Positions 1,917 to 54,189 are shown, numbered from the stretch's first letter. The stretch: DNA of 64,000 nucleotides from Amoebophrya sp. A120 (GCA_905178155.1 CAJINV010000012.1:2196166-2260165), one strand, 5' to 3'. Numbers and translations: made by a program. Notes: a model not told the origin generated them from the letters alone.

Positions 1917-4900
1917 TCACGCCCGCCCCTGCGTCGCGATGTAGCAGTCGGTTAATTCCGCTAATTCTTTTGCGATCGCCTCCTGCTCCGGGTTCAAAAT
2001 CGCAGCTTCGTTCAAAATCGGCTGCCCGCCCGGACCGGTATTCTCGCTGAAGAACTTGTCCTCCCACCGAGCGAATTCCTGGTACTGGTCGGAGACGTAG
2101 CGGAGGATGTTTCGGGATTCCATCATGTCCTGGGTGGAAATACCGTCCTGCTCGTACACGTGGAGGTAGGAACGGGACTTGTACCTGATTTGCATGTCGA
2201 TGTCGTGTTTGTCATGCAGAATATGCTATCAGATCTCAATAATGGTACTCACCATGTGCATGACAAGTTTCCGTGCACTAGACAAGCATCATCATTAGCC
2301 ATCACATGATCTTCAAAAGCCGTATAATTCTACAGTGAGTCCCAGTTGGCGCAAATTCGGTCGAACGCTTCGTGGATTGCCGTTGTGTTGGACACAAACG
2401 TGACTGAATCCCCCTGGCTATCATATGTAAAAACGTCCCCACCCCATAGTCAAGATGGGATATCTCCTAGACAAACCGACGAGCTTCTGTTGCTGTGCAT
2501 GACAAGTTTGGCGTCGTAGTGTAATCTTGTTTAGCTAGCTCCAGCAGCATCACAGATCTAGCTTATCATTCTGATTCGAACATCACGAATTCCAGAACAC
2601 GACCAGGAAATGCTTCTCATGGGGTTCCGTATGAGAAACACTTTAACTTTTACCATGCAGATTGGCATGACAAGTATGGGGTGGGAATGTTTTTACATAG
2701 GATACTGGCTCTCGTGTGGCACGGCGCAAATGGAGGAGGAAATGCTGTTTGGGATCCAGTCCGGAAAGTAGTGGTCAAATCGGGAGCCCGGCTTGTGCAG
2801 ATTGTAAATGACTTCATCCACCTCGGAAGAGTAGATGTTGCCTCGAAACGCGGCGAAAGAGGCGAGGAATCGGGCCTTCAGAATACCTGATAGGTAGATT
2901 AAGATAGCATCGTGATGATCATGACGTACTGGTTGTACGACTGCAACACAAATTTTTGCATCCGGCAATATGATCACCTCCATGCGCATCTTCATATTTA
3001 AACAAACGAAACTCGCGACGAACGGCAAATTATACCTTCCCTCGGATCCCCCGGGTTGAGTGGGTCGCATTTAATGCAAACGTTGTCCTTGGAAATCATT
3101 TGTTGCGCCAAATCCAGGACGGAAAATTTCCTGTATTCCTTGTTCGCCGGGCTGGTTAGTGGTGCGAAGGAGGATATGGAAGCGTCAGGTTTGAAATCGT
3201 CAAAGTTGAAAGAATTTGTAACGCATAAAATGCATGACCCGAGGCACGTGTGTTGCAGAGCAGGCAAGTGAGGCTGATTGTAAGCCTGTTTGGGGTTACA
3301 GCTCGAGCTGCTAAAGTAGCATGAGAAAATCGCTCTTCTTTGCCTAAACACCATGACAGAGTGGATTTACGGACCGCCGAAATTTGTCTTGCGCCACTTA
3401 GAAACTGGGTCCCAACTGGCATCCATTTTATGCATGACAAATTTTTGTCGATTTCAACTCTGACACATCCATAGAGGAACAGAGAAAGTGGGCGTTTTTG
3501 AACGGGACGAGGTTGTATCAAATGCAAATACGTCCGGGTCTGGAGAAGTGGTGAACTTGTTATGCCAGCTTTGTATTCGTGGAAAATATGTATTGCAGAA
3601 CCAACAAAAGTCGCAGGCACTTTTGTCATGCAAAAACAAAAAGGCAGCTTCTCACGCGGATTGCGTATAAGAAAGCGCTCTGGAGAGTTCTTGTCATGCT
3701 GGGCTGCATTCGGAAATAGTTCCGTCATCCACATTTTGGCATCACAGGTTTCCAGACCCAGACATGTTTGCACTTGATAGGTTGGTCTGCATTTTTCTCA
3801 AATCCGCATCCAGGATACCAGGGAGGCGGAGACAGGAGGTGATACCTTTTGTTTAATAAATAAATGGCGTTTTTTGGGTTAAATTTTGTACCATGACAAG
3901 AATTTCTTCGACCGCACTACAAATACTTACCATCTACACCTAGATCTAGTCCATCTTTGAATTTATTTCCGAAATAAATACTTGTCAAGCAGCTGTACCC
4001 ACTTATCCTTACCTGTCATGCACAACCCCACGATGTTGTTCAGGTGACTCAGTTTTGGCACATCCACTTCACAGGTGTTTTGCACAATCTGCCCAAGTGC
4101 TGCATTGTCGTAGAGAAAGCACTGGTGGCAGTACTCTAGCAGATCCTGCATCCCCAGAGCGGCATTGTATCTGATAATGAATGTATGTATGAGTTAATTT
4201 TTTGTATTTTTTGTCAATCATGCAAGACGAGAGGTGTTTGTCATGCCATCCTCAGCATCAGAACCGGGTGCAAAAAAAAAAACAATACGGCTCCAGAATG
4301 ACGTCTGTAAGCCCGGGCGATGGCACCACGGTGAAGGACTGCAAAATGCACTTGCTTCCCTTGTCGAGGTAGTCGTATCTGTGATGCGTAGTTTGCATTT
4401 GACGGCACTTTGTCATGCATGGATCACCACTGCATTTTTTGCAACAGTAGCAGGAGCGTCATGCGAAGAAACTTTGTGATGCATAACTTCCGAAATAAAT
4501 ACAGTGTTTTCAGTAGCAGCCCTGTCAACCCGGATCCCGCACCGCCGCATATTGAGTGTGTGAATTGTACTCCTTGGAGGCACTCGCACTTCTCCACTTC
4601 TTTTCGTACGTTCTCGAGCACCTGGTGATGGAATAGTTCGTGGCGGTTTATTTCGGAGCATGAGCAACGGTTGTATTGTATACATGACAAAATCGAATCA
4701 CATTCACATTCAGCGTTGTGCATGACAAAGGACCACACTTCAAAGAGCGCTGACCTGATCCGCCAAGTCGGGCCCTTCTGTGTGAAAGGCTTTTGCGTAG
4801 CAGTTCCCTGATCCTTCGTCATTGCCAATTACGTTTTCTGGTCTGTACAGCCCTCCTAGTCCGTCACTCGTTATCTGCGCCAAATCGCTCATGTTGGTAT

Positions 4901-5321
4901 CTACCTGTTATCAACATGTTATGATTTTTCACATCAACCTTTGAACAATTTTACAACATCGAAAAAGCCACTGGATGAAGAGCGCGTCATCATCAAAGTC
5001 AAAGAAAATGAGTCCGCGTCAACATCCAAGGTTCCAGCCGTGTTCTAGTACTAGTATCGCCCTTGGGACGTAGCGGCCCGCGCTGCCCTCGTTGAAGAAG
5101 ACGTCAATGTGCTCTTGGTAGATGTCCCCTTCTTCCCCCGTGTACCTACCATTCATCTGTCCGCTGCCTTCGAAATTGATTTTGTGCTCGGACGCGATGT
5201 CCCGCCAGAACTCGTGGCCGATCGCATTTCCGCACTTCCCGACCTGAATGTGGATGATCTCACGCCCGGCGGCATGGCCGTGCTTCTTGGCCGGGTGCCC
5301 ACCCTTCTCTGGAGGAGGCAT
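1917..5321 (-). CDS. Divergent beta-like tubulin; 7 GT-AG introns plus 3 introner insertions
   Basis: Spliced translation gives [85 protein letters not shown] and YLHVY, colinear with tubulin. DLRK points to beta rather than alpha. Confidence 0.9.
2419..2704. mobile_element. Introner-like TIR element, family C
   Basis: Flanked by ctggc; ends tatcatatgtaaaaacgtcccc / ggggtgggaatgtttttacataggata; removal gives ESQ|GDSVTF. Confidence 0.9.
3175..3473. mobile_element. Introner-like TIR element, family B
   Basis: Flanked by gagga; ends tatggaagcgtcaggtttgaaatcg / cgatttcaactctgacacatccata; removal gives LCS|SFAPLT. Confidence 0.9.
3516..3779. mobile_element. Introner-like TIR element, family A
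   Basis: Flanked by ggttg; ends tatcaaatgcaaatacgtccgggtctgga / tccagacccagacatgtttgcacttgata; removal gives QTN|LVPF. Confidence 0.9.
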
Positions 5322-7125: not shown

Positions 7126-9913
7126 TCAAAAAAACACCCCTCTCTCCTCCCCTAGCGTTTTCCGGGCAATCAAGCTCGACAAATCTTCCTCCTTCGTTTT
7201 GTACTTTTTCCCACCTTCCCGTCTCTGCTGCTGCTGCCCCGCTAGAGTGAGCTGCTGCTGCTGACCCAACTTTTGTCGTTTGGCTTTTATCCTGCTTCTA
7301 TTTCCCGTCAAGTCCCCAGCTGCATCCTCGTCGGATTCATCTTCGGAACCACTTCTCCTATCTCCTCCCTTTACCAACTTTTCCGCTTTCAGCTTCTCCT
7401 GCACCTTGTCCCGGAGTTGTTCCGCTTTCGCAGAAAGTTCGGCGAGGTAGGACGAGGAGCTTGATGTCATCGTTGTGGTCGACGCAGATGTTCTTGAGCT
7501 GCCAGAAGCTCCTCCTACACCGGCGTTGTACGGAGGAGCAGCTGCTGAAGAAGAGGACGAAGTGGCTCCTGAAGATTTTTTCGCCGGCGCAAGCAGGTAC
7601 TCCATCAGATTCCCCTGCCATTTGGAGAAGCGTAGCCTCAAATAATTTCCGATCTGGAGGGTGAAGGAGGTGTTTTGTTGTAGATTCGCTTTACTGTGCT
7701 GTAGTACTGCGTCACCGTCTTTTTTCCGATTTGATGTTCTTGACGAGCTCTGCGTCTGCTCTACTGCTTGCCCGAGCACCACCTCCGTCGTTTTAGAAGT
7801 GTCGTCGAAGTCGACAACTTTGTCGTTGACCCGGATTTCGAACAAACTTCGTATCCTCTGTAGTTCTTGAGCTTCTTTTTCCTCGTCGTCACTGAAAGAC
7901 TCGTCGCTCCCAGCATTCTCGCTTTTGTCCTCGCTTTCGTCTTCGTCTACCTCTACGATGGTTTGCTTAATCTTGTTTTTCTTAGTCCTGCTTTTGCTGC
8001 TCCTTCCACCTGCAGCTCCAGGGGAGGTTTTCTTCCTTCTATCAGCACCCGTCCGACTGCTGCTTCTCGCAGAAGTACTAGATGATGCAGCTCCTGCGAC
8101 AAAGTTCTTCAATCTCACACTTCCATCCCTCGCAGACACGTCTACTCGCAACACCAATCTCGGCAATTTCGAGTACTGCAACTCCGGCAAGAGCATGGAG
8201 CCTATCAACACCGAGCCGTTTTGGTACACCCCGTTAGAATTCTTCCCGCCGACCCGGTTGTTCTTATACCTGCCCGCAAGAACGCCACCGCTGCTACCAT
8301 GATTCGGGAAGAAAAGAAACGGTGCTTCCTCCCTGCAAGTTTCCAGCTCTGCGAGAAACAGGTCGCTCTTTGCTTTCAAAGAAGTTTGACTGTTGTGGTA
8401 GTTTTTCTGCTGCCGCTGTTCGATCTGTTTCAAGTGCTTTTCGACAACAAATCGTGCTAGATAACTCGGCAGCTTTTTAAGCTCGTTCCTGACTTCCGGT
8501 GTCCACTTCTGTTTGCTAGCCTGGTCCTCCACAAATTTCCGGTTTTGCTCGTCGTTGGGATCATTCATGTGTTCCGGTCCTCGCCGGTCGTCGACACTTC
8601 TAGCAGCGCTTGGGCTTCTTGTCCCCGACGTGGTCCCAAACTGCACTGGCTCCCCAGTCAGGATGAACGGCATGCCGGCTTGGCCGGGAAGAAGATCCTC
8701 ATCGTCGAGTACTTCCTCTTCCTTCTCAATCGGAATAGTCGGGTCCGCTTCGCCGATTTCAATACCGAGCGCTTCCACGACTGCTTCGCCTGCCTGCCGG
8801 CTCATTTCATCGGCAGACCTTCTCTTATTTCGGGAAGATGCAGTCGCGCCGTGGTTCTTTGTTATTGTTATTGGGTTTGAACCTGTTGGCGTTTTGTTGT
8901 AAAACTTTTCCAAATCTTTCTGACTCACGTATTTGTTCTTGATCTTCTCCTTTTCATCCGCCGCCAGCTTCGCTTCCTGTTCTTGTTTCCTTTTCCGCAG
9001 CCAGTCTGCGGCGCTGGAGGTGGCGGCCGAATCGTCTTGCTGATCAGGAAGTCCTGCTGCTCCAGATAACGCTGCATTTTTCCCGATTATACCTGCGGCC
9101 CCTTGCTGCTGTTGATTCAACAGATTCGCCTGCTCTACTCCTGAGGATAATTGATGATTTGTCGCCCCGTAATTCGCGTCAGTCGGCGGAATTGGTATCC
9201 GTGTCCAAATTTCCGCGTTCACCGCGGCATTTCCGCTCTGCCAGATGGGCATCACATCCTGCGTTTCTTTCTCGAATTGAAACAAAACCCCGGAGTTCTG
9301 GTCCCAGATGAATAGCTGTTTCGTCTTCGATTCGAGGTAGTAGCATTTCGGAAAGGCGGTCGCGGATATGGGACTCTCAAGCGTTACACTCTCAGCTGTT
9401 ACATGAATTTGTCATGCAAAGCTACCATTATCATCCACGCGATCAAGCTGCTTCGCATGGTAAATGTGCGAAGGGCTAAGCAGCACCGAAATCTGTGCGG
9501 AATTTGTAATGCTAGAGGTGCAATTGTCCCCCTTTGACTTTTGCTATTCTTGCATTACAAATTCATGTGACAGTTGGGAATGTAACAATTGAGGGCCCCA
9601 TAGCGGATGTTTTTGGGTTGTGGTTCTCCGTGTCCACTTGCCAGCGGTCTATCGCATCCTTGTACAGCTCGAGGAGAGGATCTTCTTCCGCGTCAGGGGT
9701 TTGTTTTTTCGTGGCCTTTTTATCCAATTTGTTGCAACATCCAGGTCCTGTTTTATTTTTCTTTCCCTTATTGATGCCTTGAAATGGACCACGCCGTTGT
9801 TCCCTGCTGTCTTCATTTTCAACATCCGACAAACCCGAATCCTTGTCGCTGCTATCGTCGCTGTTGTTCGCGAAATCATCCAGAGAAACCGCGGAGAGCT
9901 GGGGGCCCGACAT
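7126..9913 (-). CDS. Hypothetical low-complexity protein, two exons
   Basis: ORFs 9563-9913 and 7126-9285 join in frame (PKTSA|TAFPKCYYLESK...LFQFEKE) after removing 9367-9602 plus one repeat. Confidence 0.8.
9367..9602. mobile_element. Introner-like TIR element, family E
   Basis: Flanked by gcgga; ends tatgggactctcaagcgttaca / tgtaacaattgagggccccata. Confidence 0.9.
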
Positions 9914-11703: not shown

Positions 11704-12489
11704 TTACACAAAGTCGTCATCGTCGCTTTGCTCCCCGGCGTAGACTACGTACTGCGGCTGCTGCTGGTATGCCACCGGCTGCGCTGGCTCCGCGTAGACG
11801 ATCTGTTTTTTGTATTTGTTTCATGATCTATTTCATTCTCATTTTTTGTCAACATGTAGAACCAATGCAAGAATGATCATGATGTTGACATCTACAACTA
11901 CTTGAAGTTCTTGTTGTATACATCACGCAACACAAATTTCTACCTCTTCCTCATAGACCGGGCCTCTGTAGCAGCACCAGACGGGAATAGCAATGGCGAA
12001 GATGATGATCAACAGGATGAGCAGGATCCAGAGCCAGAGCAACCGCAACCCATAGTTTGGATTCTCGTCAACCGGATGGCAGTGCGTGTTGAGGAACCTA
12101 TCCCGGTAGCAGTATATGCATTGCAAACGTATCGCACTCGTACTATTATCATTAATTGCAATCATGTATGACAAATCTTGTCCTTAAGGTAAAACAGCAT
12201 GACAGATGCCAGCTCTCATGCTGAGCAAATTTGTAATGCAATTTATACAACTAGTACGATGGATAATTTTGTAATGCATACAGTAGCAGTAGACGCCGCC
12301 AATCCACGTGTACCACCCCGCGATTGCTTGGTCGGCCAGCAGCAGCAGCGACAGTGCGGCTGCTGGTGCGGTGAGCAAGTTCTTGCTCGTCCCTGCACCT
12401 GGGGCTCTTCGGCTATTTTTGCCCTGCGTCCTCATGTTGGAAAGAGAGGAAGTCGCAAGAGCAGTCGTGGAGGTAGTGGCAGGAGACAT
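11704..12489 (-). CDS. Small membrane protein (signal-like segment, Cys-rich ectodomain, one TM helix)
   Basis: MSPATT...LLLLADQAIAGWYTWIGGVYCYC|YRDRF...LLWLWILLILLIIIFAIAIPVWCCY...EEE, then a GT-AG intron, then IVYAEPAQ...DDDFV*. Confidence 0.75.
12115..12280. mobile_element. Introner-like TIR element, family D
   Basis: Flanked by cagta; ends tatgcattgcaaa / ttttgtaatgcata. Confidence 0.88.
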
Positions 12490-14010: not shown

Positions 14011-17000
14011 TCACGGTTGGAACCCCTGCTGTTTCAACTTTTTCCCTTGTCTTTTCCGTTCCTTTTTTTCTGCTCGCTCCTTCATCCGCTGAATTTGCTC
14101 TTCCACGGAGTTTTTGTTCTCCGCTGGTTGCACGTTCCCCACGCCGTTCTCAAACCCCCTTCCGTGGTAGAATTTCTGCGCCAGGGACTTCATCCGTTCC
14201 GCGCGCTCGTCCAGGATTCGCTGCTCCTTTCGCTCTTTGTGCCGTCTCTTCCGCGCGGCCTCCGCGGAAAGAATGGTAGAATCGGCCGAGGAAGAGTCGC
14301 TGTCAGATGAATCTTCATCCGTTTCCTCTTCCTCTTCGGAACCATCTTCCCCTTCCTCTGGTGACTTATCCGTCGTTTGTTTCTTCGAAGAAACGGATTT
14401 GTTGTCGTCGTCATCGGCAGATTTTGAGGTCCCAACGGAATCTCTCGTCGCGGACCGGGATAGTTGCCCCGGCTTTTGATGGCCGCTCCCCGTGTCCGAC
14501 TTCTGATCTTCGTCTTTGGAGGATTTTTCACCCTTGGACGATTTTTCGTCGAGATTTTTCTCGCTGGCAGTTCCGTCTTTGGAAGATTTTCGCTCCCCAG
14601 AAACGTCTTCGATGGCTAGATCGTCTTTCTTCTTTTTCTTCCTTTTCTTCTTCCCCTGTCCCTCCACTCCCACCTTCGTCCCGTAGTTTTGGTTGTCCGT
14701 CATGCGCGCGAAAAACTGCCGGTTTTCCTCCTGCGCGATGAACACCTTGATCTGCGCCCAGATCTGCCGCCCGAAGCAGTACGCCACGATCCCGGATAAC
14801 ACAAGGATCACGATAAAAATCACCGCAAACACCTGCGCAATGACGTCCGCGCTGTCCTCGTCTTCCTTGTTAAGAGCCGCGGCCGCGGCGGCTGCGGCGT
14901 CCCGCTCCTCCTTCGTGCAGTACAAAGGCGCGGGGTTTCCGCCGCGACAGCACCCCTTCTGCCGCACCCCCGCGGAATCACAGTACCCGTGCGTGAAGCG
15001 TTGTTGCAGATACTCACACCCCTCCGACCCCTTCCGGAAATTCAGCGCCCAGTGGTACTCGACTTCGTTGCAGGTAACCCCGCCCCCGTTCTCGTAGCCG
15101 CCGTCGATGGCGCAGCGCTGGTCGGTCACGTAGCGGTTCACAGTGACCATGTTCTCCGGCTGCCGCATGTTCGAGGCTCTTCTGATGTTCAACCCCGATA
15201 AGATGATCGAGTCCCGGGTGCTGCTCGCGTAGATTCGCATGATCAACGTCCCAATCCCGGTGGCGTGCGCGTACCCCTCCTGCGCGGGTTCGTTCAGCCC
15301 CTTTGTGTACCCGAGTTCTGTCATCGGGTTCCACTTCTTGTGGTAGATGTAGGGCTCGCGGACCAAGTACTCGTCAGAAATTTTTATCAAATGCAAAAGC
15401 GTATGGGTCTGGAAGATTCTAAACTTGTGATGCTGTCTCTGGATTCGAAAAAAATTTGTATTGCGTGACCAGTAAGAGGAGAAGATTTTGTGCTTCACGG
15501 AGATAGATAGATTTGTCATGCGGAATAGGCATGAGGAAGCGCTCTAAAAATCTGTGATGCTACGCCATGCATTACAGGCATTATGGATCATGCAAAATAT
15601 GCATGACAAGCCTTGCAATCTTCCAGACCCAGACAATTTTGCAGTTGATAATTTTGTTCTGGTTCCCGTTCGACTGCGACGGGGAATTCGACCCGACCGG
15701 GGTGTCGCCGTAATTCAGCCTCTGCACGTCCATCGTCATGTTGTAGGTCGTGTTTAAGGTCCAGGGATTTTCCTCGAGGTATTGAAACAGCTCGTAGCGG
15801 TACAATGCTCCGGGGACCAGGTTCTCCACGCGAATGAAGACTTGTTGGATGTGCGTGCAGGCCATGACCGAACGGAACGGCCGGGTGGGGGAGCCGCCTC
15901 GGTGCGTGCAGGGAGACAGAGCGAACTTCTCCGTCACGAGCTTCGCTTTGTACAGACCCGGCGTGTCGTGCGTCCCCTCCAAAGCGTACTCTCGTTCCGA
16001 CGCCACGCCAGTCCGTAAATTCGACGTTTCCCCGATGTCAAACATGGGGGTTCGGTAAAACTGCCGCCGTTGCGAGTCCGGAACGACAAGTTGCTCGATA
16101 AATCCGCTCATCACCAGCGGCTCCGTGTTCAACGCCATGCACTGAGCGCCGGTCGTTTGCGTTCTTTCCATGACGCCGTAGATCGCGTCGATCCCGGTGC
16201 CGCAAATCGTGCACCTTTGTTGGTTCATCGGGCGACAGCAGGTGGATTCATATTCCCGTTTGTACGCTAAGCACAGAATGTCGTTGTCGTACGCCCGCGT
16301 GAACGCTTCCAAATTGATGTCCCGGCAGAACCGCTGCGCGGGTTCTAGATAATTTCCACCCACCGCCATGCAGTCCGCGAGGGACTTGATCTGGATAATG
16401 GTCTCCTCCGTGTTTAAATACAGACTTTCCCGGATTTCGTACCCGCTGGTCAGCGTCCGCTTCACGCAGCGAAAACCCGCGGGCTCGTCTGCGGTGATCA
16501 TCCGATTATGCAATACAAATTTCCCGTACATGTACAAAACGCATGACAAATCTCGCTAACTTTGAGTGTCAAATTTGCCATGCTGACTAAGAGTGAAGAT
16601 CAGTTTTGTCATGTTGCGGAGACAGCATTTGTACGTGTACGGGAAAATATTTACTGTGGGTACAGATTCGCCGGATCGCACAGGTAGCACGTTTTGGGGT
16701 CGATGTCGATGCTATCAAATGTAAAAATGTCTGGGTCTGGAAGAATGCGCGATTTGTCATGCTTCTCTGGCATGACTCTTAAATCTGTCATGCAGGTTAC
16801 CCAAGAGCCCCACTTTCCTGTCATGCAAAAACGCGGTTTGTCATGCAGAATAGGCAACACCTAGAAGCTCAGAAACTTGTCATGCTGAGCCAGCACTTAT
16901 GGCTTCCTCATGATACGCCACCCAGCATCACAAGTTTCCAGACCCAGACATTTTTACATTTGATAGATGCGTGGGATGCCCGTGCCCATCCCGAGCGATT

Positions 17001-28073: not shown

Positions 28074-28370
28074 ACGATTTTCTTGAGTTTAGGTCGATGT
28101 GCTTGAGTTTAGTAATTAACGAATTTGAGTTTGACACAAGAGCGGCAAGTCCTGCCATGAGATACATAAGGATTTGAAAATGAATCTTCGAAACGTAAAT
28201 TAAATCTGTGTGAAACTACACTTTTTATCGAGAAAGAATAAAAGTGAAACGAGGACTCTGATCGAAAGTACGTGTACGCTACCTTGCCACGACCACTCGT
28301 GGGAAACTTGCAAAATGGCACATGTCTAGAGTTTTTAGAAATCTACAAACATGACACGCCCTTGTCCTAT

Positions 28371-32268: not shown

Positions 32269-32706
32269 ATGCGGTTTTTTCCTCTCAATCTAAATTCTAC
32301 TGCAATTCGATGAAAATCAAAATTCTACAAAACTGAAAACGAACGAGAAGTTCCTAGTCGTCTTGGTTTCACCACGCAGATCCTTTTACTGACGCTGATC
32401 GTGGAAACACACACGACACTTGAGAAAAGACCAACAGATCTTAACCAAGGAATAGGCACATCAAACGACGGACCGATCGCAAAACTAAAATTTAAGTATG
32501 TCAAACAGAGCCGCGAGCGCGAAGAAAGAAAAACACGAAGGTGGTTCCCAGCCGGAAGAGCCATCCGCTTTTCAGCTCCCCTATTGCATTCTTTAGATTC
32601 TTAAAATTGTACGTTGTCTTTTGTGTTCATCATGATCTGATATCGCAAAAGGTTATTGTACAGATGCGTTTTTTTTTTATGCATGATGACATCGACGCCT
32701 CGACCT

Positions 32707-35700: not shown

Positions 35701-36977
35701 AAGATTGTGAGCCTATTCACGGTTTGGGATAGAGCTGGTAAAGGAGCATGACAAAAGCAGTCTTCCTCTTCTGTGCCCAAACAGCATGACAAATTGGATT
35801 CTAGTGCTCCGAAAATTTGTCATGCGCCGCTTACAAATTGGGCTTCCAACTGGTATCCATTTTATGCATGGCAAATCATTTCAACTCTGTCAATTTCAAA
35901 CCTGACGCTTCCATACTGCAGCTCCCTAGCGTAGTCCGCCGCCGTCGCGGCTCGCGCGGCGCGATTTTTCTTTTTCTGCTCTTCATCCAGTTCTTCCTCT
36001 TCGCTCGTTTTCGGCCGCGGACGCTTGTTTACTCTGCTGCTGTTGTTGTTGGCCGGCTTGCTCGAGTTCTTGTCCTTGTTGTCAGTTGAGTTCTTCTCTT
36101 GTACCGGTGGAACGGTCGGTCGGTCACGAGAATTTACGTTTTTATCCTTTTGGCCAATATGTTGGGAAGGAGCTACAGCGGATTTACTTTCATCCGAACC
36201 ACTATCGCTTGGATCGCTCCTGCCAGCGCTTTGATCGCTCCTGCCACCACGACGTGGTTCCTTTTCTTCCTTCTCCTTCTGCTTCTCCGCGGCCTCCTGC
36301 TGCATTCTCCGCTCTCTTCGTTGCTTTTGATTGAGCCTTTTTTTCTTCTTTCCCTTTCGAGTCTGTTTGTTCGGATTGTTTATTTTTCCGATAGTCGTTG
36401 TTCTGTTATCGACGCCCCGCCCTTGTTGTGGTCCAGCACCACCCACCTGCCGAGGACTTGCTCTAGCAGCTGGAACATTGTTTCTCCGATTTCTATTGCC
36501 GCTCCGCGGTGACCTCCCGCGCTCTCTGGTCCCGTAGTTGCCATCGTCGTCCTGGCGAAGATCATGATTGACGTCATCATTGTCATCCCCAATGGGCACT
36601 GTGGATCTGCGTTTGTTCTCCGCGGCGGAAGACGAACCATTTTTTTTCTCTTCCCCGTCTCGTCCAGACGACGCGGAGAAAGCACTCGTCCGCCGTCGCT
36701 TGTTGCGCTTGTAGTTCGACGGGGCCTCCAGCAGGGATGAACCGTTTTGGTGGTGGTTCTGATCATGGTTGGACTCGTCGTGGTGGATAAGTTTCTTCGT
36801 GTCCTCCTCTTTGACCTGAAAATCCGCCTGCACTTCGGCCTCGTCGCGTTCGATCACGATGGTGGAGCGGTTCCGCCTACTAGCCGTGTCATCCCCGATC
36901 AACTCTAAGTCGCTAATATCGAGGTCGCTGGCAACATTATCGCGGTGGGAAGCAGCGGGAGATGAGACTGACATCAT
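32707..36977 (-). CDS. Large, mostly disordered hypothetical protein; possible C-terminal cold-shock/OB-like segment
   Basis: ORFs 35862-36977, 33599-35599 and 32707-33582 are joined by two introners; the C-terminal TGRICKYWPAEQYGWIES...DAFF resembles a cold-shock domain (weak). Confidence 0.75.
33556..33671. mobile_element. Minimal 116-bp introner-like element, family J
   Basis: tatccccagaaaaaaaaacacccccatc / gatgggtgtttttccctggata; flanks tcatt/tcgtc; removal gives EDVD|ETAVAAP. Confidence 0.8.
35599..35915. mobile_element. Introner-like TIR element, family B
   Basis: Flanked by ctgca; family B TIR. Confidence 0.9.
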
Positions 36978-42728: not shown

Positions 42729-45700
42729 TCACGACGGTCTCGCGACTTCCGCCACGACTACCCTGGGAAACTGGGTCCAATCTAGTTTGAAGCCGAGCAG
42801 CTGAAACAGAATCTCCTCGTCTTCATCGAGATGGTGAGATGCGTCGTTCGTGTTTTCCTCTTTCCAAACAGCGGAACTGCCATGCTGGTACAGCTCCGCG
42901 ACCGCCAGCTCATCGTGCCGATCGTGCTGTCCGGCGGGAAGGTGTGATTTATTCCCATCCACTACCGGTTGAACTGTCAAACCCCGATGCTTGTTCATCA
43001 TCGAAACCATATTGGCACCAGTAGAACTTCGGTTCGCTAAACTTTTTCTTGCAGGAGCCTGCTGCTGGTGTAGAGTATGTGTATGGCCAGCATTCTGCGC
43101 GTCGTTGTGTTGACTGTCACCTTTACCAACATGTTCTTGACCATGAACATGCTTTCCACGAAGATGGTGTTCGCCATGAAGATCACGATGATCGTGATCC
43201 TCTTTTGTTTCGCCATAAAACGAAAACAATGACGGCCGACTTTTCCGCGTACTGGGTGGGCTGTGTGCTGTTGATGGGCCTTTGGCATGTAGTTGATGTA
43301 CATGCGTCCCTTGTTTTCCCTTCGCGCTAGTATGGTGCTTTGATGTAGTAGAAGCACCAGCAGTTGTGGACGTAGGAGCCCCGTGAGATGATGATGCTGA
43401 TCTACCTTTTGCGCTTTTTCCAGTTTTGTCATGCTTGTTACCAGCAGCACTTCGTAGCGACGAAAAGTCCAAAAACTCCTTTTCCCACTCCAGCACCCCT
43501 ATCCTGTGCAAAAGTATCGTAGTCGTACTAATTGCAAATATGCATGACAAATCTCCTTCCTAAGGTAAAACAGCATTACAAATTCCACTTTTCTTCTTGC
43601 CAAAATTTGTGATGCAATTTATACTAGTACGATACTTTTGCGATGCATAACCCCGTACTGCCATCGATGTTTCAAATTCTTGTCCACTGCGAGGTTCGTA
43701 TTAAATGCAAAAGTGTCTGGGTCTGGAATGTTGCCGGGTTTGTCATGCATATTTTGCATGACCCAGGATGTCTGTAATGCACGACCTAGCATCACAGATT
43801 TTTAGATGGCTTCCTGATGCCTACTCCGCATGACAAATGCCGTCCCCGCGTAACACAAACTAGACTCCTCTTGCTGGTCATGCAATGCAGATTTTTTTAG
43901 AGTCCAAAGTTCGCATCACAAGTTCCAACCTTCCAGACCCAGACATTTTTACACTTCATAGTTCGCTAGCTGATACGGTATCTTATTTTCGACGCTTTTT
44001 TGATCGTTTTCAACATGATCTATCCTGAGTAAAAACGTCCCCACACCAGAGTTGTCATGCAGATTTGCAATGACAGGAACATTTGTAATGCGCATCGCCA
44101 GGAGAGGCATTTTTAGTCGTGTTTTGGAATTTGTAATGCTGTAAACAGGATGAGCAGATGGATTTCTTATGCAGCTGGCCTTGCGAACCTGCACTACATT
44201 ACGGACTGCAACCTGTGATGCGTGACCCCCAAAAGTTCTAGGTTTGTGTTGCAAAATCACCATCTTGACTCTGGTGTGGGGATGTTTTTACTCAGGATAT
44301 GATCTGCGGCTATCTTATTCTTTTCAAGAAACACCAATTCCCGCCGCAACCGTTTCCCTTCGAATTCCTCCCTGACTTTGTCGTCAAAAACCGCTTTCCG
44401 CTTCCGAAAGAGCAGCTCAATCGGCCGCTGCAAGTCTCGTTTGTTCAGGATTTTTCTTGCGTCCGTTTCATCTTCGTAGGAAACATTGACAATTCGGTCT
44501 ACTCTCTGTCGCAGCTTGAAAAGCTTTTCTTCTTGAGTTTCACCCGCCAAGTCGTCTGGTGCTGTTTTTTTGCTCTTAGTCCCCTCGTCATCATCAGCCG
44601 CAACTTCACTGACCAGCTGGTTCCCAATCATGATGACTTCGTCGTCAAACAGGAGCTGTTGTGCAGTGCAAAAGTATCGCACTCGCATAAATGCATTAGA
44701 AATTTCCTCAGCATGAGAAATAAAATTTGTAATGCTGATCTACCTCAAGAAAAAGACTTGTAATGCATGATTGCAATACGAGATACTTTTGCACAGGATA
44801 GCTGCCGATCCACCGCCCAGCCCTGACGTTTCAAGTATTTGATTCGCCCCTGCTCCAAGCGCAAGTCTAATTCCACGTCTTCCAATCCCGCGTGCAATAT
44901 GCATCGCAAAAGTATCGTACTAGTACTACCTAGTTGTACTACTTGCATGACAAATTTTCCTAGCATGGCAAATGAAATTTGTCATGCTAGTACATTACCT
45001 AGGAAATTAGATTTGTCATGCCTGATTGCGATCACTACGAGTACGATACTTTTGCAGTGGATATGCAACTGCAAGTAGCAATCCGCGAACTTTTTCGGCA
45101 TAAAGGACATGGTGAAGCAAGGCACTTCCAATCGGTCGGCCCGACGGATCAATTTCTGTATGCAATACAAATTTCCCTTACATGTACAAGATGCATCACA
45201 AATTTCACCAATTTGGGACGTAAAACTTGTCATGCTGAACTAGGATCGAAGCCAAGTTTTGTCATGCGGAGACCGCACTTGTAGTTGTACGTGTACGGGA
45301 AATTTACTGTGGATATTCTGGAGTAGAGCGTCATTTGCCGTTTTCTTCTCGGTTGTCCAGGTGGGCACACTGGTAATTTTTTCCTTGCAAATGGCTAGAA
45401 CCACGTCTCCCTCTCGCATGCCCGCCTTGTAGGCGAGGGGGCGGGCCGCGGGGGGAAGGGCGGGAAGGGCCAGCGCCGGGGCGTGGTGGTGGCCGCTTGT
45501 ATAGTCCGCGGGTAGAACTACAAGTCGAGCGGCGCGAGGCGTTCCTGTTTCATCTCCATCATGCGGGGTGACGTGTTTGACTTTTTGTGCTTGCTCTACT
45601 TTATGTAGTGAGTCCGGCTGTTCTTGTTCCGGTTGTTCACTTTTCCCAGGAACGTGATTAAGTTGAAATCGCTCAGCGACATGTTGATCTTGCCTTCTTT

Positions 45701-48700
45701 CTCGCCCCCGAATCTCCTCCATCACGTACCGGAACCGTTTCTGCTGCTTTTCGTTTTCATTTTTCTGCTCGTGTCGGCCGTGGGCGGTGCCCGCGTTTGT
45801 GTGATCTAGGATGAACTCTGTGATGTTTTGTTCCAGATGGGAAAACAGCGGAGGAGCGGGGGGCAAGGGAGAAGTGCTGGTCATCTGTGTTTTGTAATTC
45901 CCACTTTCTTGTTCGTTGTCATGCTCGCCTGAAGCAGGAGTGCTGTCCTTCGCATGGTTAGCTTGTTCCCCATGTTGTCTGTGTGCATCGTTGTCTGTTC
46001 CGAGAGTCGGGTCGCTCTTTCGCTGGCCTGACGGAAGAAGATGAAAAGATGAAGACGCAGCTTGCTGTGGACGACCAGAGACTTCAGTTTGTTGAGAAGG
46101 GGATGCGCTGCGTTCTACTGGCGATTCCACTTCGAAATTCTCCCGATCCGCCATCTTGAACATGGTTTCCAGCAGCTGTTGCGAGTACAAGTTGGCGCTC
46201 TCCAAATGTACTCGTGCTGCGCCGAAGTGATTGTCAAATGTGGTTGCGCCAGCAGCGCCAATCATGATATCGCTAGTTGTAGTACCGGAGGACGGCTGAT
46301 GATGAACTGCAAAAATGTCTGGGTCTGGAAGAATGCATGTTTGTCATGCTTGTCTGGCATGACTTTTAAATCTGTCATGCACGTTACCCAAGAGCCCCAT
46401 TTTTCTGTCATGCAGAAGCGCAGTTTGTCATGCAGAATAGGCAACACCCAGGACCTCAGAAACTTGTCATGCTGAGCCAGCATTTGTAGCCTCGTCATGA
46501 GACGCCACCCAGCATCACAAGTTTCCAGACCCAGACATTTTTACATTTGATACTGCTGATGAAGCAGCAACGTGTCCTCTACCTCTGGAATTGAAATGGT
46601 CCCGAGATGCGTAGTCCGCAACACAACGTCCCGCGGCACAGGCGGAAATTTTGGACGAAAGGAGGGGTCCTCCGTGAGGGATTTCCGCGCGAGAACCGAC
46701 TGCTGCATCCTCCGTTTCGCGGGAAGTAGACCGCGACTTGCTTCTTCTGCTTCTTCGATGTCCGCGCCGAGGTCTAGGCTGCCTTCATCCTCGGACAAAT
46801 CGACGTCGACCCCCCGGTCGACAGCTAATGATGTTCTACGGATTATCTCCCCCTCAGAACCAACAAAAGCGCCATTTTTTCGACCTGCAAAGCCACTCTT
46901 TCCTTTTCCCTTTTTCGCTGCGTAGGCAGCGGCTTTTCCGAGGGCAAAAATGGTTGCGGCCCCTTTCGTTTTGCCCTTTTTGGAGATGGAGGTGGCTGCT
47001 CCAGCAAGAGACCTGCGGGCGGCCGATGGAATGGTTCCTGTAGCAGCTGCTGCTGAATCCAAATGGTCCTCATGATCTTCATGCAGTTTGTCGCCTTTGC
47101 CTTTTTTATGGCCTTTTTTGTGGTGGTGGGCCTGATGGTGACCGTGGTGCTTTAGGTGATGAAGATCTTCGTCATGGTCGTGCTCATCTGTGTGATGCGA
47201 TTCCCTGTCATGTTCAGTGTGCATGTGGCCGTGGCGCTTTTGCTTGCCGTGCTTATGCTTTCCCTTTCCCTTCTTACCGGTGCGTCTTTTCTTGTGGTGC
47301 GCGTCATCGTGGAGACCCTCATGTTGGAGGTGTAGCTCTGCATCTTCGTGCTCCATCTCAGCAGCGAGCGAAGTTGTAGCTTCAGCTTCGTATTCTAGAT
47401 TTCCATCATCCTCCTCGTGCTCGCCGTCCTCGGCGGCGGCCTCATCCAACTCTGTCTGCTGCGCAGCAGGCGGCCTGGCTTCGTAGTTTCCTGCCCCTGT
47501 AAAAACACCTTCACCTATGCCGGCTTCAGTTCCAGCACCAACATCTTCCTCGTCCACCTGTTGTACGGTCTCAAACTCGTCCACCACTTCTCCCACTTCC
47601 TATGGCGTTCTCAAACGTTACCCTCTCAATTGTTGCATGGATTTGTCATGCATACCCGACTGCACCACATCAAAAGCCTTAGCATGGATTTGTCATGCAA
47701 AACTCTCATCAGTATCTACATCATCAAGCTGCCTCGCATGACAAATGTCCGAAGAGCTGAACAGCATCTAAATCTTCTGTGCCAAACCTGTATTGCAAAA
47801 GGCGAATTCTTCCCCCTTGCACTCTTGCCATTCTTGCATTACAAATCCATGCAGCGGTTGAGATGTAATATTTGAGAACGCCACACTTCTATGTCTTCAG
47901 TTTCAACTCGAACCGGCTCCACTTCCAACTCGGTTACCAAATCCGATACGCCGCCCGCACTGGTGCCCAATTTTCTTTTCGTCTTCTTCACTTTCCGCTT
48001 CGGTTTATTTGTCGGCCTGCTAGATGAAAGAAGAGGAGGACCACCTACTTCGGAGGCAAGTTGAGACGGTAGCTCAGCATCCGCGGCTGCAACATCGCTC
48101 GTCTCCTCCCCGTTTTCATCCTCTTCTTCCACGCTATCCGCCGCACCACTGTCCGACGGTGTTTGCAACGCTAACAGCCCTCCATCCGCATTCATGAATT
48201 TTGCTTCTTCCGGGACGGCTTCGACTAGTAACAACCCGTTTTCAGCTAGTGCAGTTTTTTTCATTTCGTCCAAGAGCTCGGCTTCGTCATCTGCGAGTAG
48301 TGCCTCTGCTTCAATATCAACGTCCTCTGGTGGGAGAAGCGTCGCGGTCTGCAAAAACTCCGGCAACTCTTCCCTTTTCCGAATCACACCCATAGACTCC
48401 ATCGCCGTGGCAATTACCTCCTTCCCCTGATCCAGCAATGTAGCCGCGTTGGAGTCTTCAGACTTCAGTAGTTTGCTCGCCGGATCTCTTAATAGCGCGT
48501 CGATGTCCTGCTCCTGTTCCTTCTTCTTGCTGTCCTTGTAGATCCGCAGTTTCGACTCTTCCTTGAACAACGCAACCTCCGCCGCTTCTAGTTTCGCGTG
48601 GAGCACTTCCAGATCCTCCGGCATGGCGCTCTCAAACGTTACATTCTCAACTGTTTACATTAAATTTGTAATGCACCAATGGAAAAAGGGAAAGGGGAAA

Positions 48701-51258
48701 GGTTGCGCCTTTTGCATTACAGGTTTGGAGGAGATTATAATGCTATCTAGCGCGTCGAGAACTTGTCATGCGAAGCAGCTTGATCATGTAGATTCTGATG
48801 CCAATATTGCATGACAAATTCATCGAACAGTTGAGAGTGTAACGTTTGAGAATCCCATATCCGGCTCAATCAACGTCGAAACGTCGATCGCGTGCTCGAT
48901 TTGCTTCACCAGCTTCTCTATGAACTGCAAAAGTATCGTACTCGTAGTAATTGCTGTTATGCATGGCAAAGCTCTCTGTGTCTCCTGACGAGCGAGGTAA
49001 AACAGCTGCTCCTGCTGTTTCACAGCATTACAAATTTCATGTGTAATGCTGAGCCAATTTGTAATGCGATTTATATCACTTCTACGATGCTTTTGCAATG
49101 CATATTCTCCAACTTCCCCGCCCGGATTTTCGAGTGCCGCGCGAAGTGAATTTTGTCGTTCGCTTGCTTCAGGATTTTGTTGATCTCCTGTTGCTCTTGC
49201 TCGGTCGGTTTCAACACTTTATTCAGTTCTGTTGTGCCGAGCGTTTCTTCGTCGGCAGCTGCCGTGGTCGTCCCACCTGCCGCTGAAGAAATTATACCTG
49301 CAGTCGCACTCTTTTGAACTCTGTCCACCAAACCGGCAGAGTGATCTGCAATCGCGTTACCAATGCGATTTACGTGTCCCGGGGCGTCGGCGACGTGCTT
49401 ACTAACGTGATGCCTTACTGTTTTCACCGCATCGTGGCCGAGAATTTTATCAAACGTGGATTTCAAAAAATGCGTCACCGTATTTTCATCGCTGTCAAAA
49501 GCGCTGCTAGAAGAGGAAGAAGGCTGGTTTTTTTTCTTCTTCTTCTGACGGCTTTTATTTCTCTTTGTTCCTCCAGTATCCTTGTTGGTCAAAATTTCCG
49601 CTTGTTTCAGAATCGCTTTCTGCAACTCATCCTGCTCTTTTCTCTCGGTTGGCATACCCAGGGTTTGGTTTACCTCCGTTAAACGCTGCTGCAGCTCCAT
49701 CCGTTCCTGCAAGAGTAACAGACTTTCGTTTTTTTTCTTCTTCAAACTCGATTTCCGCTTCGGAGAAGAAGTTTTTTTTGCGGTCGTGTCGGTAGGTGAA
49801 GAAGTTGATGCAGGAGAAGCTTTTCTTTCGTCTTCGAACTCTTGTCCGCTAGTTGTGCCAGTAGTGCTTTCACGTCTCCCGCGTGAAGAAGTACCAGATC
49901 CCTGCTGCTCTCGCTTGTTGTTTCTTTTGATGCCTCCAAGAGCCGCTCCTTCATTTTCTGAAGAAGTGTCCCCGGCGATAATGCCGCCTCGCTTGATTTT
50001 CATCACTTTTGGCGCCACGATGTCGTCGTTCATTTTCTTCCGCAACACCTTATACATCGCAAAAGTATCGCACTTGTGTCGTTTGCGTTTCGAATTCGAT
50101 TCGTACTAAGCGCAGTCATGCATTACAAATTTCTTAGTCAAGGTAAGTCCGCATTACAAATTGTATTTCTCACGCCGAGAAAATAATTTGTAATGCATTT
50201 ATCCGAGTAGAAGTACGATACAGATACTTTTGCACAGCATACAATTTCGCACTGGCTGATTTTCTACCCAAAGCAGACGATCCACCTGGCCTTTCCAGCT
50301 GTTGCAGGAGTTCCGGTTTCTCCTTTTTCCGAATCTTCTCGATCTCGTCCTCGTGTGCCACAATCGGCGGGACGTTCATGCGGACCAGGGTTTCCTCCAG
50401 GATCTTCTTCATGAGGGCGTCGTGATCTAAAATTTCGGGCAGCACGGGCATTTCCGCACGCGGGGGGAGAGGGGACAAATTTTTGAGGTCGAGAGTGGAG
50501 GCGGCGGGCGGTGAGGGTGGTCGTGAGGAATCTGGCTCAACACCTTCTAGTTTAGCCGGCGCTCCCGGTAGAAGTTCCGCAGCCCTCTTGCCTGTGTTTT
50601 GTTGAAACCCCACCGGCACGCCTTGACGAGGAGGATCTTTTTCTGACGGCGATGATTTTACTTTTATTGCTGTTTGCTCTTTACTGTAGTTCGACGTACT
50701 CAGAGCTACTTTTTTTGGTCTAATATTCCCCACTTCAGGCGGAGGCGGCGCATCTTGAGCGGGGCTTTTTTTCTTGGTAACGGCTTTTTTCTTCTTTCTT
50801 CTCTTCTGCGCGGCGGAATCAGGACTGCTCGTGTGCTCCAGAATCAAATCATCCATGTGAACGCCGTCTTCCTGGTCATTGTCGTTTTCATCATCATCAG
50901 CTTCATCAAGGCTGGTTGGTGAAACAGCTTCACTTGGTCGCTGGTCAACAACAACGGTGTCGCGGTCATTCGCAAACAGGAACGCTGGCGGTGGTGGTGA
51001 ACCTACTCCTGTGCTCAGGAGAGTTGTAGGCTGTTCCGTATCAATTCTATCAGTCGGCAGTGGCACTTCTTCTCCATTTTCATGACGATACGAACTGGAA
51101 GAGGCTGATGACGCCGAGGACGACACCCGGTGCACGTGCAACTTTTTTTTCTTGTTGTCCTGCTGCAGAAACACACCCGGAAAGTCCCAGGGCCGCATGA
51201 TATACTCCTCTGGTACACCGACTGCGGAGGAGGTGCGATCGTTCTTTCTCGACGTCAT
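42729..51258 (-). CDS. Very large low-complexity/coiled-coil protein split by 11 introners; His-rich tracts and a PDZ-like fragment
   Basis: Frame continuity checked across 50051, 45159, 44898, 44660, 44021, 43699 and 43500; AYKAGMREGDVVLAI resembles the C-terminal half of a PDZ domain. Confidence 0.72.
43500..43649. mobile_element. Introner-like TIR element, family D
   Basis: Flanked by acccc; family D TIR. Confidence 0.9.
43699..43960. mobile_element. Introner-like TIR element, family A (inverted relative to 39875)
   Basis: Flanked by gttcg; family A TIR. Confidence 0.9.
44021..44299. mobile_element. Introner-like TIR element, family C
   Basis: Flanked by tgatc; tatcctgagtaaaaac / gtttttactcaggata. 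Confidence 0.92.
44660..44800. mobile_element. Introner-like TIR element, family D (inverted)
   Basis: Flanks gctgt/gctgc; left end is TGT. Confidence 0.87.
44898..45063. mobile_element. Introner-like TIR element, family D (inverted)
   Basis: Flanked by tgcaa; family D TIR. Confidence 0.9.
45159..45315. mobile_element. Introner-like TIR element, family I
   Basis: Flanked by ttctg; similar to 16507-16662. Confidence 0.88.
46301..46552. mobile_element. Introner-like TIR element, family A (young subfamily)
   Basis: Flanks ctgat/ctgct; left end is GAT; interior very similar to 16713 and 30785. Confidence 0.9.
47601..47885. mobile_element. Introner-like TIR element, family E
   Basis: Flanks cttcc/cttct; tatggcgttctcaaa / tttgagaacgccaca; gcatggatttgtcatgca repeated internally. 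Confidence 0.88.
48622..48859. mobile_element. Introner-like TIR element, family E (inverted)
   Basis: Flanked by tccgg; ctcaaacgttaca / tgtaacgtttgag. Confidence 0.9.
48919..49104. mobile_element. Introner-like TIR element, family D
   Basis: Flanked by ttctc; family D TIR. Confidence 0.9.
50051..50241. mobile_element. Introner-like TIR element, family D (aged)
   Basis: Flanks cacct/caatt; gcaaaagtatc / gatacttttgc. Confidence 0.82.
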
Positions 51259-52089: not shown

Positions 52090-54189
52090 TCATCGAACAA
52101 GAAACGGGTTTATATTTGTTGGTGACGAGAACAAATTCTCATCCTCATCAGAATCCTCTGCGTAGTGGTCTTTTCTAATCCGATCGCTTTTGCTATTGCT
52201 CCCATCCCTTCTATCCCCACCACGACCTGACGATTTTCTATTGGCTCCACGACCAGCTGCACTTAGGGACATTTTGACTTTTCCCTTATTCTGCATTCTC
52301 TGATACAGTTTTTCGTAGGTCATTTCCTATCCTGAGTGAAAACGTCCCCACACCAGAGTTGTCATGCAAAAGTGCAATGAGAAGAGCATTTGTATTTATG
52401 CGCAGCTCCATGAGAGGCATTTCCAATCGTGTTTTGGAATCAATCTGTAATGCTGGAAACAGGATGCGAAAGTGGCTTTCTCATTCGGCTTCTCTTGCCA
52501 ACACTGCAGAGGAAAAGTTGTCATGCACAGCTCCCAAAACTTGGAGATTTGTGTTGCTAGAGTCCCAACTTGACAACTATGGGCAGCTGGGGATGTTGTT
52601 ACTCAGGATATTTCCAACAGTTTCACCATCGCTAAGGACTCATCACCCGCGCCTATCAAACAAAAAAAAGTTCGTCACGATCACTCATGCGCATTTTTGC
52701 AATACAAAATTTTCTGTCATGCGTAAAAATGCATCACATTCAAACTTCCTGAGGGATTTCCCTAGTGTTTCTGCAATACAGGGGAAAGCTGTGATGCTAA
52801 AAAAATTTGTAATGCAAAACCCGCAAGTTAGTGACAGTGACAAACTTTTTTCTCTCCATAGCGCCACTGCGGTGTTTAATACTTCTACCCTGATGTTGAT
52901 CGTGCCTACCCTTCCTTTCTCTGTAAGAATCCGTATCTCTACTTGCGCCGGCCATTCTTTCCTCCTCCACGGCTGCTTGTCGCTCCGCTTCCACCACTTT
53001 TTTCTTCTCTTTTCTTATCTGTTGCTCGATTTTCACGAGTTTTTCCTCGAAAAAGCTCCGCTGGTCGTTTAATTCCTGTTGGAGCAACTCTTTTTCCTGT
53101 TCGTGATAAGCTATCTCGTGCGTTTCCTGAAACTTTTCCTCCGCTTCTTGTTCTTTTGCTCGCAAGGTCTGTTCCCTTTGGTCTAACTCTTCTTCTAACT
53201 GCTTTTTCAACAGTCTCTGCGTCTCCTTTTCCTCGAAAAGTTCTTTTTGTTTCTGGAGCTCCTTCCTCCTTTCTTGGTCGATCTTCCTCGATTGAGAGGA
53301 AAAAGGTCGTGGTCCTGGTGCACCAGAATTATGGAGGTCGTACTCGTAGTGCTTGTTGTGCCCATGCTCGTAGTCGTGCTGGTGGTCGTGCCCATGATGA
53401 TGATAGTGATGATTTCGACTACCTCGATCACGTTCTCCCGGAGCCGCATGTCCATGTTGATGACCATGACCACCACTTGTACCCTTACTCGTCATTTTTT
53501 CCAGCTGAATTCTCTGCAACTGCTGCAGTTCCTGCAACTCCAAGCGCTGCTGCAAAATTTCCTCTTCCAGCTTCATTCTCTCGACCTTCTGCTCCTCTAA
53601 ACGGTGTTCCTCATTTCTCGCGATGTCGATCTTCTGTAGCAAATCCGTGATTTCCCGTTTTCCCCGCTCGATCGTGTCGGTTAAAACACCCACGATCTGC
53701 TTCGACGCGACCTCTTCCTTGGTAGGTTGCGGGATAGTATCCTGTACAAAAGTATCGCACAGCACTCGTATTGCAATCATCCATTACAAATTTTGTTCTT
53801 AATGCAAATCCGCATTACAAATTTCATATTTCTCATGCTGGGAAAATTTGTAATGCATTTATACGAGTACGATGCTTTTGCAATTCATAGATAGAGGGAT
53901 TCGGCAGCGTGGAGAGCGGATCGCGCTTTGATGTTGCAGCTGATGTCGACGTGGTGGAACCAGCAGACCTTGGCCCGCGGCCCCTCGATAGAGAACTAGA
54001 AGCTTCTCCTGCGCCGCCGCTGTTAGTTGTTGAAAACACCCCTTCAGAAGTAAAAACGTCCTCCTCATCGATCCCGCCTAGTATGGTGGTGTCGCCTTCC
54101 ACTTCGTCGAGAAAGCTGAGCCGCTTGGACAAAGTCGTGTTCTTCGTATCTGTTCTACTACCTCCAGTCAACAAGCTGCTCGCCGACAT
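52090..54189 (-). CDS. Hypothetical coiled-coil protein with His-rich tract; 3 introners; 5' end uncertain because it abuts the retroelement
   Basis: ORF segments 53833-54189, 52797-53780 and 52090-52323 are separated by TIR elements. Confidence 0.7.
52328..52610. mobile_element. Introner-like TIR element, family C
   Basis: Flanked by tttcc; family C TIR. Confidence 0.9.
52654..52860. mobile_element. Introner-like TIR element, family G
   Basis: Flanked by gcgcc; aaaaaagttcgtcacgatcact / agtgacagtgacaaactttttt. Confidence 0.88.
53738..53889. mobile_element. Introner-like TIR element, family D
   Basis: Flanked by gatag; family D TIR. Confidence 0.9.

Follow-up and report, generated by a model that had tools for sequence, protein, structure and literature searches.

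Transposon-like introns in coding exons of Amoebophrya sp. A120 probably share one cut register that follows transcription

How can a short DNA element settle in a coding exon, wherever it lands and whichever way round, and leave the encoded protein intact? The question is raised by a stretch of 64,000 nucleotides from Amoebophrya sp. A120 (GCA_905178155.1, CAJINV010000012.1:2196166-2260165; the whole of this stretch is called the window below), in which genes on the minus strand are interrupted by elements with terminal inverted repeats (TIRs) and flanking direct repeats. That the class is not new had been recognised in a first-pass annotation of the window: A120 introners with TAT ends, direct repeats of 3-5 nt and RNA support have been published (Farhat et al., 2021, PMC7789003; papers given a PubMed Central number are cited from partial text throughout), and the excerpted text describes them as lacking a clear splicing signature, with borders of unknown position. 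Where, then, is each element cut out, is it lost from RNA or from DNA, and by what machinery? The answer that we regard as likely is that these are TIR transposons lying in coding exons in either orientation, kept in the DNA and removed from RNA by the major spliceosome at a fixed cut.

A de novo scan of the window for inverted ends with flanking repeats returned 42 candidates, 38 of which were accepted, those at 4168, 24903, 27940 and 51048 being discarded as chance pairs or canonical introns. A blastn search with the accepted elements then added four copies (16507, 18929, 20919 and 29966; elements are named by their first coordinate), giving a final set of 42 elements, which range from 116 to 323 bp with a median of 248 bp, the total counted in the first-pass annotation. 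Its 28 perfect 5-bp flanking repeats were found again, as were its TAT...ATA ends, both of which are exact in 33 of the 42 elements, the remaining ones being off by one base. Grouped by blastn, the set consists of families with 12, 11, 4, 3, 3, 3 and 2 members plus three single copies that have relatives in other loci; family D, formerly credited with 12 members, retains 11, element 29966 being doubtful since its ends are D-like and it has no blastn relative. When each element is removed together with 5 nt, 41 of the 42 junctions fall within a main open frame, compared with only 30, 32 and 28 when 3, 4 or 6 nt are taken with the element, and yields 11 minus-strand genes, as many as first proposed. 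All 42 elements lie in coding sequence, although, elements set aside, gene spans leave uncovered about 32% of positions 1-54,500 (p about 1e-7; the spans are approximate). A terminal stem is predicted in 34 of the 42 inferred introns, and an Rfam search of the window gave no match.

The RNA evidence consists of assembled contigs, taken from the best-supported matches over two stretches of the window that cover 20 of the 42 elements. The runs concerned, X3 to X6, carry no RNA record for the stretch and were labelled RNA by guess; we take them as RNA because GT-AG introns are dropped from them and their depth is uneven. Two raw RNA runs, X9 and X10, placed 5 and 0 reads on the stretch. Seamless removal, as claimed at the outset, was seen at all 13 of these 20 elements that could be read, where the element and 5 nt are missing from the contigs. 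Thus contigs of X3 skip 171 nt (166 + 5, joint 12109/12281) at the family D element 12115..12280 and 271 nt (266 + 5) at the family A element 15385..15650, where, in agreement with the first-pass annotation, no slide of the junction produces GT or GC..AG. They also leave an exon of exactly 45 nt between 16507..16662 (family I, imperfect repeat, transcript start TAC) and 16713..16965 (family A), and an RNA contig piece starts precisely at 21737, one base beyond the family A element 21474..21736. In the RBM22/Slt11 gene (23632..26770, minus strand) a gap of 694 nt in an X3 contig equals the 694 nt expected once three elements, with 5 nt each, and three canonical introns (25012-25173, starting GTAC; 25369-25541 and 26070-26340, both GTAT) have been subtracted. 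The elements are 24137..24381 (family A, imperfect repeat) and 24464..24785 and 25604..25926 (both family B), the removal of the latter two following from this length sum and from protein identity: the spliced product matches P0001, a protein that NCBI names for Amoebophrya sp. A120, in every one of its 542 residues, from which it follows that the window elements belong to the published A120 introner class. The RBM22 protein is identical for every register at 24137, so that the cut position there is not placed by the protein.

The fullest case is a single 2506-nt contig of X6 over a minus-strand gene at 28373..32270 (ends approximate), which lacks six elements and, separately, three canonical introns (28517-28684, 30308-30459 and 31460-31623, each starting GTAT); the rebuilt length agrees exactly (2244 = 2244) and opens a frame of 703 codons. 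The six elements are 29009..29245 (family A, joint 29003/29246), 29365..29675 (family B, 29359/29676), 29966..30155 (29961/30157), 30552..30698 (family D, 30546/30699), 30785..31036 (family A, 30778/31036) and 31720..31875 (family D, 31715/31877, found in two RNA samples, X5 and X6). In the DNA run X1 depth is flat at about 45 outside elements, and all eight of the contig pieces listed pass from exon into elements, one of them covering 29966 entire. Among the best-supported contig matches of this one DNA run, the element-free joint at 12115 had a depth of 0. The first-pass annotation had left RNA splicing and DNA excision as alternatives; the balance now leans strongly to RNA splicing, because the DNA run retains the elements and because both the cut and the conserved bases are oriented with transcription.

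Where the flanking repeat is imperfect, as it is in about 17-30% of copies, the identity of the bases in the messenger RNA tells which repeat copy stays. In transcript direction at least 4 bases of the upstream copy are retained at 16507 and at least 4 at 24137 (contig pieces ending at 16501 and 24131), and at the listed joints at least 3 are retained at 29009, 2-4 at 29966 and no more than 4 at 31720. Only the retention of 4 upstream-copy bases fits all five ranges, and the common cut very probably lies one nucleotide ahead of TAT and four beyond ATA, giving an intron N-UAU...AUA-NNNN, so that an element a..b of the window corresponds to an inferred intron a-4..b+1. What stays is one repeat length, as had been stated, and it is not one copy: four bases come from the upstream copy and one from the downstream copy. 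These five sites, drawn from three families and one unassigned element, fit a single register, so that one system appears to serve the families, as had been proposed. The family A copies 24137 and 29009 lie in opposite orientations and both are consistent with the same register, which thus follows transcription. Element 30785, whose target repeat ends AGG, is a GT..AG intron at exactly the inferred register, and the former description of the elements as being without GT-AG accordingly holds for the dinucleotides generally, with this copy as an exception and with U+2 and A+3 retained, the letters that follow G in a canonical GUA start. The canonical introns backed by RNA, six in number, open with GTAT (five) or GTAC (one), matching the inferred element start without a fixed G. 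A TA-G acceptor register, cutting 4 nt before TAT and 1 nt after ATA, would give GC..AG at three sites and was excluded by 16507, 24137, 29009 and 29966.

A wider sample shows which bases are under constraint. The end of family A was scanned across metagenome contigs, yielding 141 loci of record JACKZZ01 (694 kb when merged), whose copies, possibly from a different strain, are up to 93-94% identical to window elements; among the longest blastn hits no locus overlaps the host genes of the window. The flanking repeat was perfect at 5 bp in 316 of the 455 TAT..ATA candidates in these loci, and lengths of 3, 4 and 6-9 bp gave 0-12 perfect repeats and 2 bp gave 37 against 31 expected. A second pass that ignored the three end bases found 494 elements, of which the 447 with at least four of five repeat matches were kept; a codon model oriented 389 of them (58 were dropped), and together with the 42 from the window these make 431 oriented elements. 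Applied to the window elements the model called 37 of 42 correctly and none wrongly. At the inferred register U stands at +2 in 431 of 431 and a purine at +3 in 430 of 431, as in canonical U2 introns, whilst A stands at -7 in 429. The first T of the 5' end (U+2) shows no changes against 10 at its mirror A (p=0.002), and the third base of the 5' end shows 14, 12 of them to C as in GTAC, against 2 at the A at -7 (p=0.004). Taken by themselves the 389 non-window elements give 0:7 and 11:2 for these two comparisons, so that the asymmetry seen in the window recurs in an independent test. Comparison of like bases on the same strand gave 0 changes at U+2 against 14 at U+4 (p=1e-4) and 2 at A-7 against 10 at A-5 (p=0.04). 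At inner TIR positions 4-14 no asymmetry between the 5' and 3' sides was found, save p=0.04 at position 7, which is not significant over 14 tests. G occupies +1 in 13 of 42 window elements and 131 of 431 overall, against a flank background of about 0.30, and a terminal AG is present in 3 of 42 and 34 of 431, near flank background, so that neither canonical mark is retained; the bases on either side of both cuts are also at background, without the pyrimidine/purine junction consensus of euglenid introns.

We consider the removal chemistry to be spliceosomal with fair confidence. The elements fail the canonical U2 dinucleotides yet probably act like U2 introns reduced to U+2, A+3 and a near-terminal A. 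The transposon end would provide U+2 and A+3 of the host GUAU/GUAC donor, with any target-site base at +1; the end hairpin would hold the two intron ends together; the A at -7, first A of the final ATA, would serve as the branch nucleophile; and the 3' cut would be placed by a fixed distance past that A, not by AG. The prediction that A-7 is the branch point is a tentative one, to which we give slightly less than even weight. With symmetric ends, an insertion of either orientation, wherever it lands, would become a spliceable intron and leave the protein unchanged. Should the spliceosome read transposon ends in this way, every copy with TA..TA termini and a 5-bp target-site duplication (TSD) is born as a perfect intron, which would explain the harmless invasion of exons by tens of thousands of copies. 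It is possible, and we give this too a weight somewhat below even, that the A120 spliceosome has abandoned G+1, the terminal AG and apparently U1, reading instead U+2/A+3, a branch at A-7 and a 4-base ruler for the 3' cut. Parallels are found in Trichomonas and Giardia, with short fixed branch-to-end distances, and in group II introns, which branch at -7 or -8. Solved structures show G+1 paired with the terminal AG in the active site; if removal is spliceosomal, both would be dispensable once a hairpin sets the geometry. A120 possesses U2, U4, U5 and U6 and 83 of 89 spliceosomal proteins (PMC7789003). A single register would also allow some 30,000 A120 introns to be re-annotated at their true borders, and it makes the splicing of A120 introners, an open question since 2021, directly testable.

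Several points weigh against this account. The register comes from five sites, in assembled contigs from two samples of one study; the evidence at 16507 and 24137 is that of piece ends, outside the listed joints, and by our arithmetic random cuts would fall inside every one of the five ranges in about 2% of cases. A codon-likelihood test over 74 imperfect repeats was flat and favoured no register, a stop being created only at 20403, on retaining 1 or 2 upstream bases. The A at -7 has two A-to-G exceptions, the 58 elements left unoriented probably contain another, and L001:1360, also dropped, could be a departure from the U+2 rule. Neither lariat nor branch point was seen. The element ends have neither a branch consensus in common nor a pyrimidine tract, seven canonical-style bases being missing, and the six canonical introns have no fixed A at -7. 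A branch A has to be flipped out, and the stem prediction moreover pairs this A (mean pair probability 0.69). Neither transposase nor integrase was found by Pfam in 105 of the 129 long open reading frames (ORFs) of the loci, and no transposase in 24 window ORFs; the excerpted text of PMC7789003 likewise reports that U1 was not detected and no transposase found in A120.

The rival that survives best overlaps with the reading we prefer: removal would be spliceosomal and at the same register, with the branch elsewhere, at a variable or internal position, and the A at -7 kept for docking of the 3' site or through a CpG-related mutation bias at its mirror base. The A-to-G exceptions at -7 speak for it, as do the many 5' TAC variants that create CG and the canonical introns without a fixed A at -7; yet on the same strand A-5 varies five times as often as A-7 (10 changes vs 2), and we think this version unlikely, if worth keeping in view. 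We give less credence to a separate, non-spliceosomal or specialised RNA machine that recognises the end hairpin, cuts and ligates at fixed offsets and releases euglenid-like circles. The terminal stems predicted in 34 of the 42 introns would suit such a machine, as would the lack of constraint on G+1 and AG and the undetected U1 (PMC7789003), and euglenid introns with TIRs and repeats, of open mechanism, do exist (PMC11282704). The conserved bases nevertheless survive the loss of their pairing partners, so that base identity counts for more than pairing; the element start is the host canonical GUAU/GUAC minus its G; and 30785, cut at this register too, forms a GT-AG intron. We judge the separate machine improbable.

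Programmed DNA excision in the expressing stage, whether like that of internal eliminated sequences (IESs) or mediated by the repeats, with RNA copied from the cleaned DNA, would account for the seamless loss of one repeat length, and contigs drop rare variants. Against it, depth in X1 is 0 at the one true joint listed and eight pieces run from exon into element. The junctions at 16507 and 24137 lie on the 1-base side of the repeat and bypass the longer 3-base homology, which counts against both repeat-mediated deletion and template switching, and the register and conserved bases track transcription, not element orientation (24137 vs 29009). Ciliate IES and piggyBac-like excision uses fixed target words, TA and TTAA, whereas here no fixed target word is present and the repeats differ from site to site; we judge excision from DNA very improbable. 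That the joined forms are template-switching artefacts of reverse transcriptase is barely credible, for although the evidence is contigs derived from complementary DNA, and false introns classically arise where a hairpin is flanked by direct repeats, several reading frames, those of tubulin and RBM22 among them, break unless the elements are removed, template switching would retain the downstream copy where 16507, 24137 and 29009 retain an upstream base, and purifying selection on U+2 in the transcript direction requires a cellular process.

How did the elements arrive? In the four largest families the two orientations occur at 99:80, 28:34, 16:23 and 18:20, and the occurrence of both rules out that the elements spread by simple reverse splicing. 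The repeats differ at every site and have the composition of the flanks. The best reading of the elements is as non-autonomous TIR DNA transposons with TAT...ATA ends and a 5-bp target duplication. Insertion would be carried out by a DDE integrase-type enzyme making a 5-bp staggered cut in GC-rich targets without sequence preference, and we see about even chances that it is a Ginger/IS3EU-like DDE integrase acting in trans. For the mobilising enzyme, described earlier as unresolved, a candidate class is in print: A120 fam38, which has homology to long terminal repeat (LTR) integrases and is filed as 'Ginger, 5-bp TSD, TA/TA termini' (PMC12130899). The window elements, at 116-323 bp, are too short to encode an enzyme, no autonomous partner with the same ends was found in the 694 kb of loci or in the window, and the family A end motif had no match in viral contigs. 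A search for long elements with TAT or TAC ends and a 5-bp repeat gave six candidates. Three were rejected because their ends belong to separate short elements, one in L054 as a chance pairing of internal D-family sequence, one in L004 as stretching across host genes, and L056:11017-11988 as an autonomous element since it proved to be family A sequence interrupted by some 700 bp, in which no ORF reaches 150 codons. The last, located in an RPB1 gene, and a further copy of family A, interrupted by about 250 bp (L054:5793-6298), both keep their two ends and 5-bp repeat intact, which suggests that removal depends on the element ends rather than on length. In the loci, two neighbouring ORFs at L010:2628-6083 match the C-5 cytosine DNA methylase family.

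A short motif, TGTCATGC / GCATGACA with variants, occurs 130 times in the 9.7 kb of window elements, where it is present in all 42, and 13 times in 43.7 kb of sequence outside them. It was found in 421 of the 431 oriented elements, on both strands and with a tendency to point inwards. Canonical introns contain it as well (three of six), with occurrences at 25012-25173, 25369-25541 and 26070-26340 and in the introns of tubulin. This motif could be a common site for a transposase or splicing factor, or a sign that some GT-AG introns are decayed elements.

The host genes of the window include those for tubulin, an ATG4-like peptidase and RBM22, and all elements are listed on the minus strand. In the tubulin gene, 2419..2704 (family C), 3175..3473 (family E) and 3516..3779 (family A) are each flanked by a perfect 5-bp repeat, and taking out the element with 5 nt reproduces the protein joins QTN/LVPF and LCS/SFAPLT reported in the first-pass annotation. 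Very GC-rich stretches at 1-900 and 5800-6800 flank this gene and share no blastn similarity. Element 9367..9602 (family F) follows, with a perfect repeat. The ATG4-like (Peptidase C54) gene carries 18929..19237 (family E, imperfect repeat). Beyond it lie 19273..19422 (family D, imperfect), 20047..20317 (family A, perfect), 20403..20681 (family C, imperfect, transcript 3' end ATT), 20919..21186 (family A, perfect) and 21225..21387 (family D, perfect). RBM22/Slt11, a spliceosomal factor of 542 amino acids that itself carries three elements, has long N-terminal and C-terminal extensions; this factor contacts U6 and the intron close to the 5' splice site. The product of the gene at 28373-32270 is a coiled-coil protein with a signal-peptide-like start, and its contig depth, a poor measure, is 145 in X6 against 2-5 in X3-X5; the gene is possibly stage-specific.

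Further along, the three elements that are single in the window join larger families once the loci are added: 33556..33671 (6 members, imperfect repeat), 38705..38917 (34 members) and 52654..52860 (5 members). Family A is represented by 39875..40139 (imperfect repeat), 43699..43960 and 46301..46552 (transcript 3' end ATC), family C by 44021..44299 and 52328..52610, family E by 35599..35915 (perfect repeat), family F by 47601..47885 (transcript 5' end TGT) and 48622..48859 (3' end ATG), and family I by 45159..45315. The family D copies are 43500..43649, 44660..44800 (facing the other way from most D copies, with ACA as its transcript 3' end), 44898..45063, 48919..49104, 50051..50241 (imperfect repeat) and 53738..53889. 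The block at 54900-64000 is GC-rich, has no elements and bears minus-strand ORFs; at 57459-59735 there is a weak resemblance to reverse transcriptase (PF00078, E 1.4e-6, just under cut-off), and the block looks like a retroelement.

How do these elements compare with known systems? Their closest counterparts are the A120 introners themselves, with inverted-repeat ends of TAT followed by an A run, direct repeats of 3-5 nt, a length of about 240 nt, many families and RNA support (PMC7789003); the window differs in a repeat of 5 bp and in the single register, constant U+2 and near-constant A-7 derived here. Table S4 of that paper gives nine predominant A120 splice pairs, all NT-NN, which agree with the inferred register and are not so interpreted in the excerpted text. 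The A120 families of Gozashti et al. (2025, PMC12130899) are likewise TIR DNA introners, but in the 20 of 58 A120 rows seen, and fam38, the origin of the splice sites is inconsistent (both, 5' or 3'), TSDs run from 2 to 5 and no common register appears. We found no statement of this register in the literature searched on these introns and on the transposon class, nor any mention of it in the excerpts of PMC9860276, PMC11282704 and PMC11453091; figures of PMC7789003 (Fig. 3, S19-S25), the other 37 A120 rows of PMC12130899 and Roy et al. (2023, Curr Biol) may hold part of it. IS3EU and GingerRoot share TA..TA termini (occasionally TG..CA), TIRs, a lack of target sequence and GC-rich targets (PMC10045372, PMC6839031), but their TSD is 6 bp, a length at which none of the 455 TAT..ATA candidates is perfect; Ginger2 has the 4-5 bp TSD of our elements (PMC10045372), whereas Ginger ends are TG..CA and ours TA..TA. 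Euglenid nonconventional introns also combine an end-pairing stem, junction repeats and non-GT-AG borders, but have pyrimidine/purine junctions and leave as circles, whilst the A120 elements are free at +1 and keep a GU-like U+2/A+3 (PMC11282704). In Fritillaria the U2 spliceosome removes non-GT-AG introns (PMC13326754), and those of Fritillaria borealis are transposon-derived with TIRs and TSDs (PMC13326754, PMC11282704), but Fritillaria prefers AG-AC and AG-AT ends and has U1, whereas in A120 elements positions +1, -2 and -1 are free and U1 is undetected. In strain A25 the predominant pairs are all TT-NN and the repeats start TTA (PMC7789003, Table S4), so that A25 elements may supply T-T-A at +1 to +3, again U+2 and A+3, as a possible convergent solution. 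Relatives without these introns exist, strain AT5 among them. Set beside these systems, the elements are already published and the common register is the new part.

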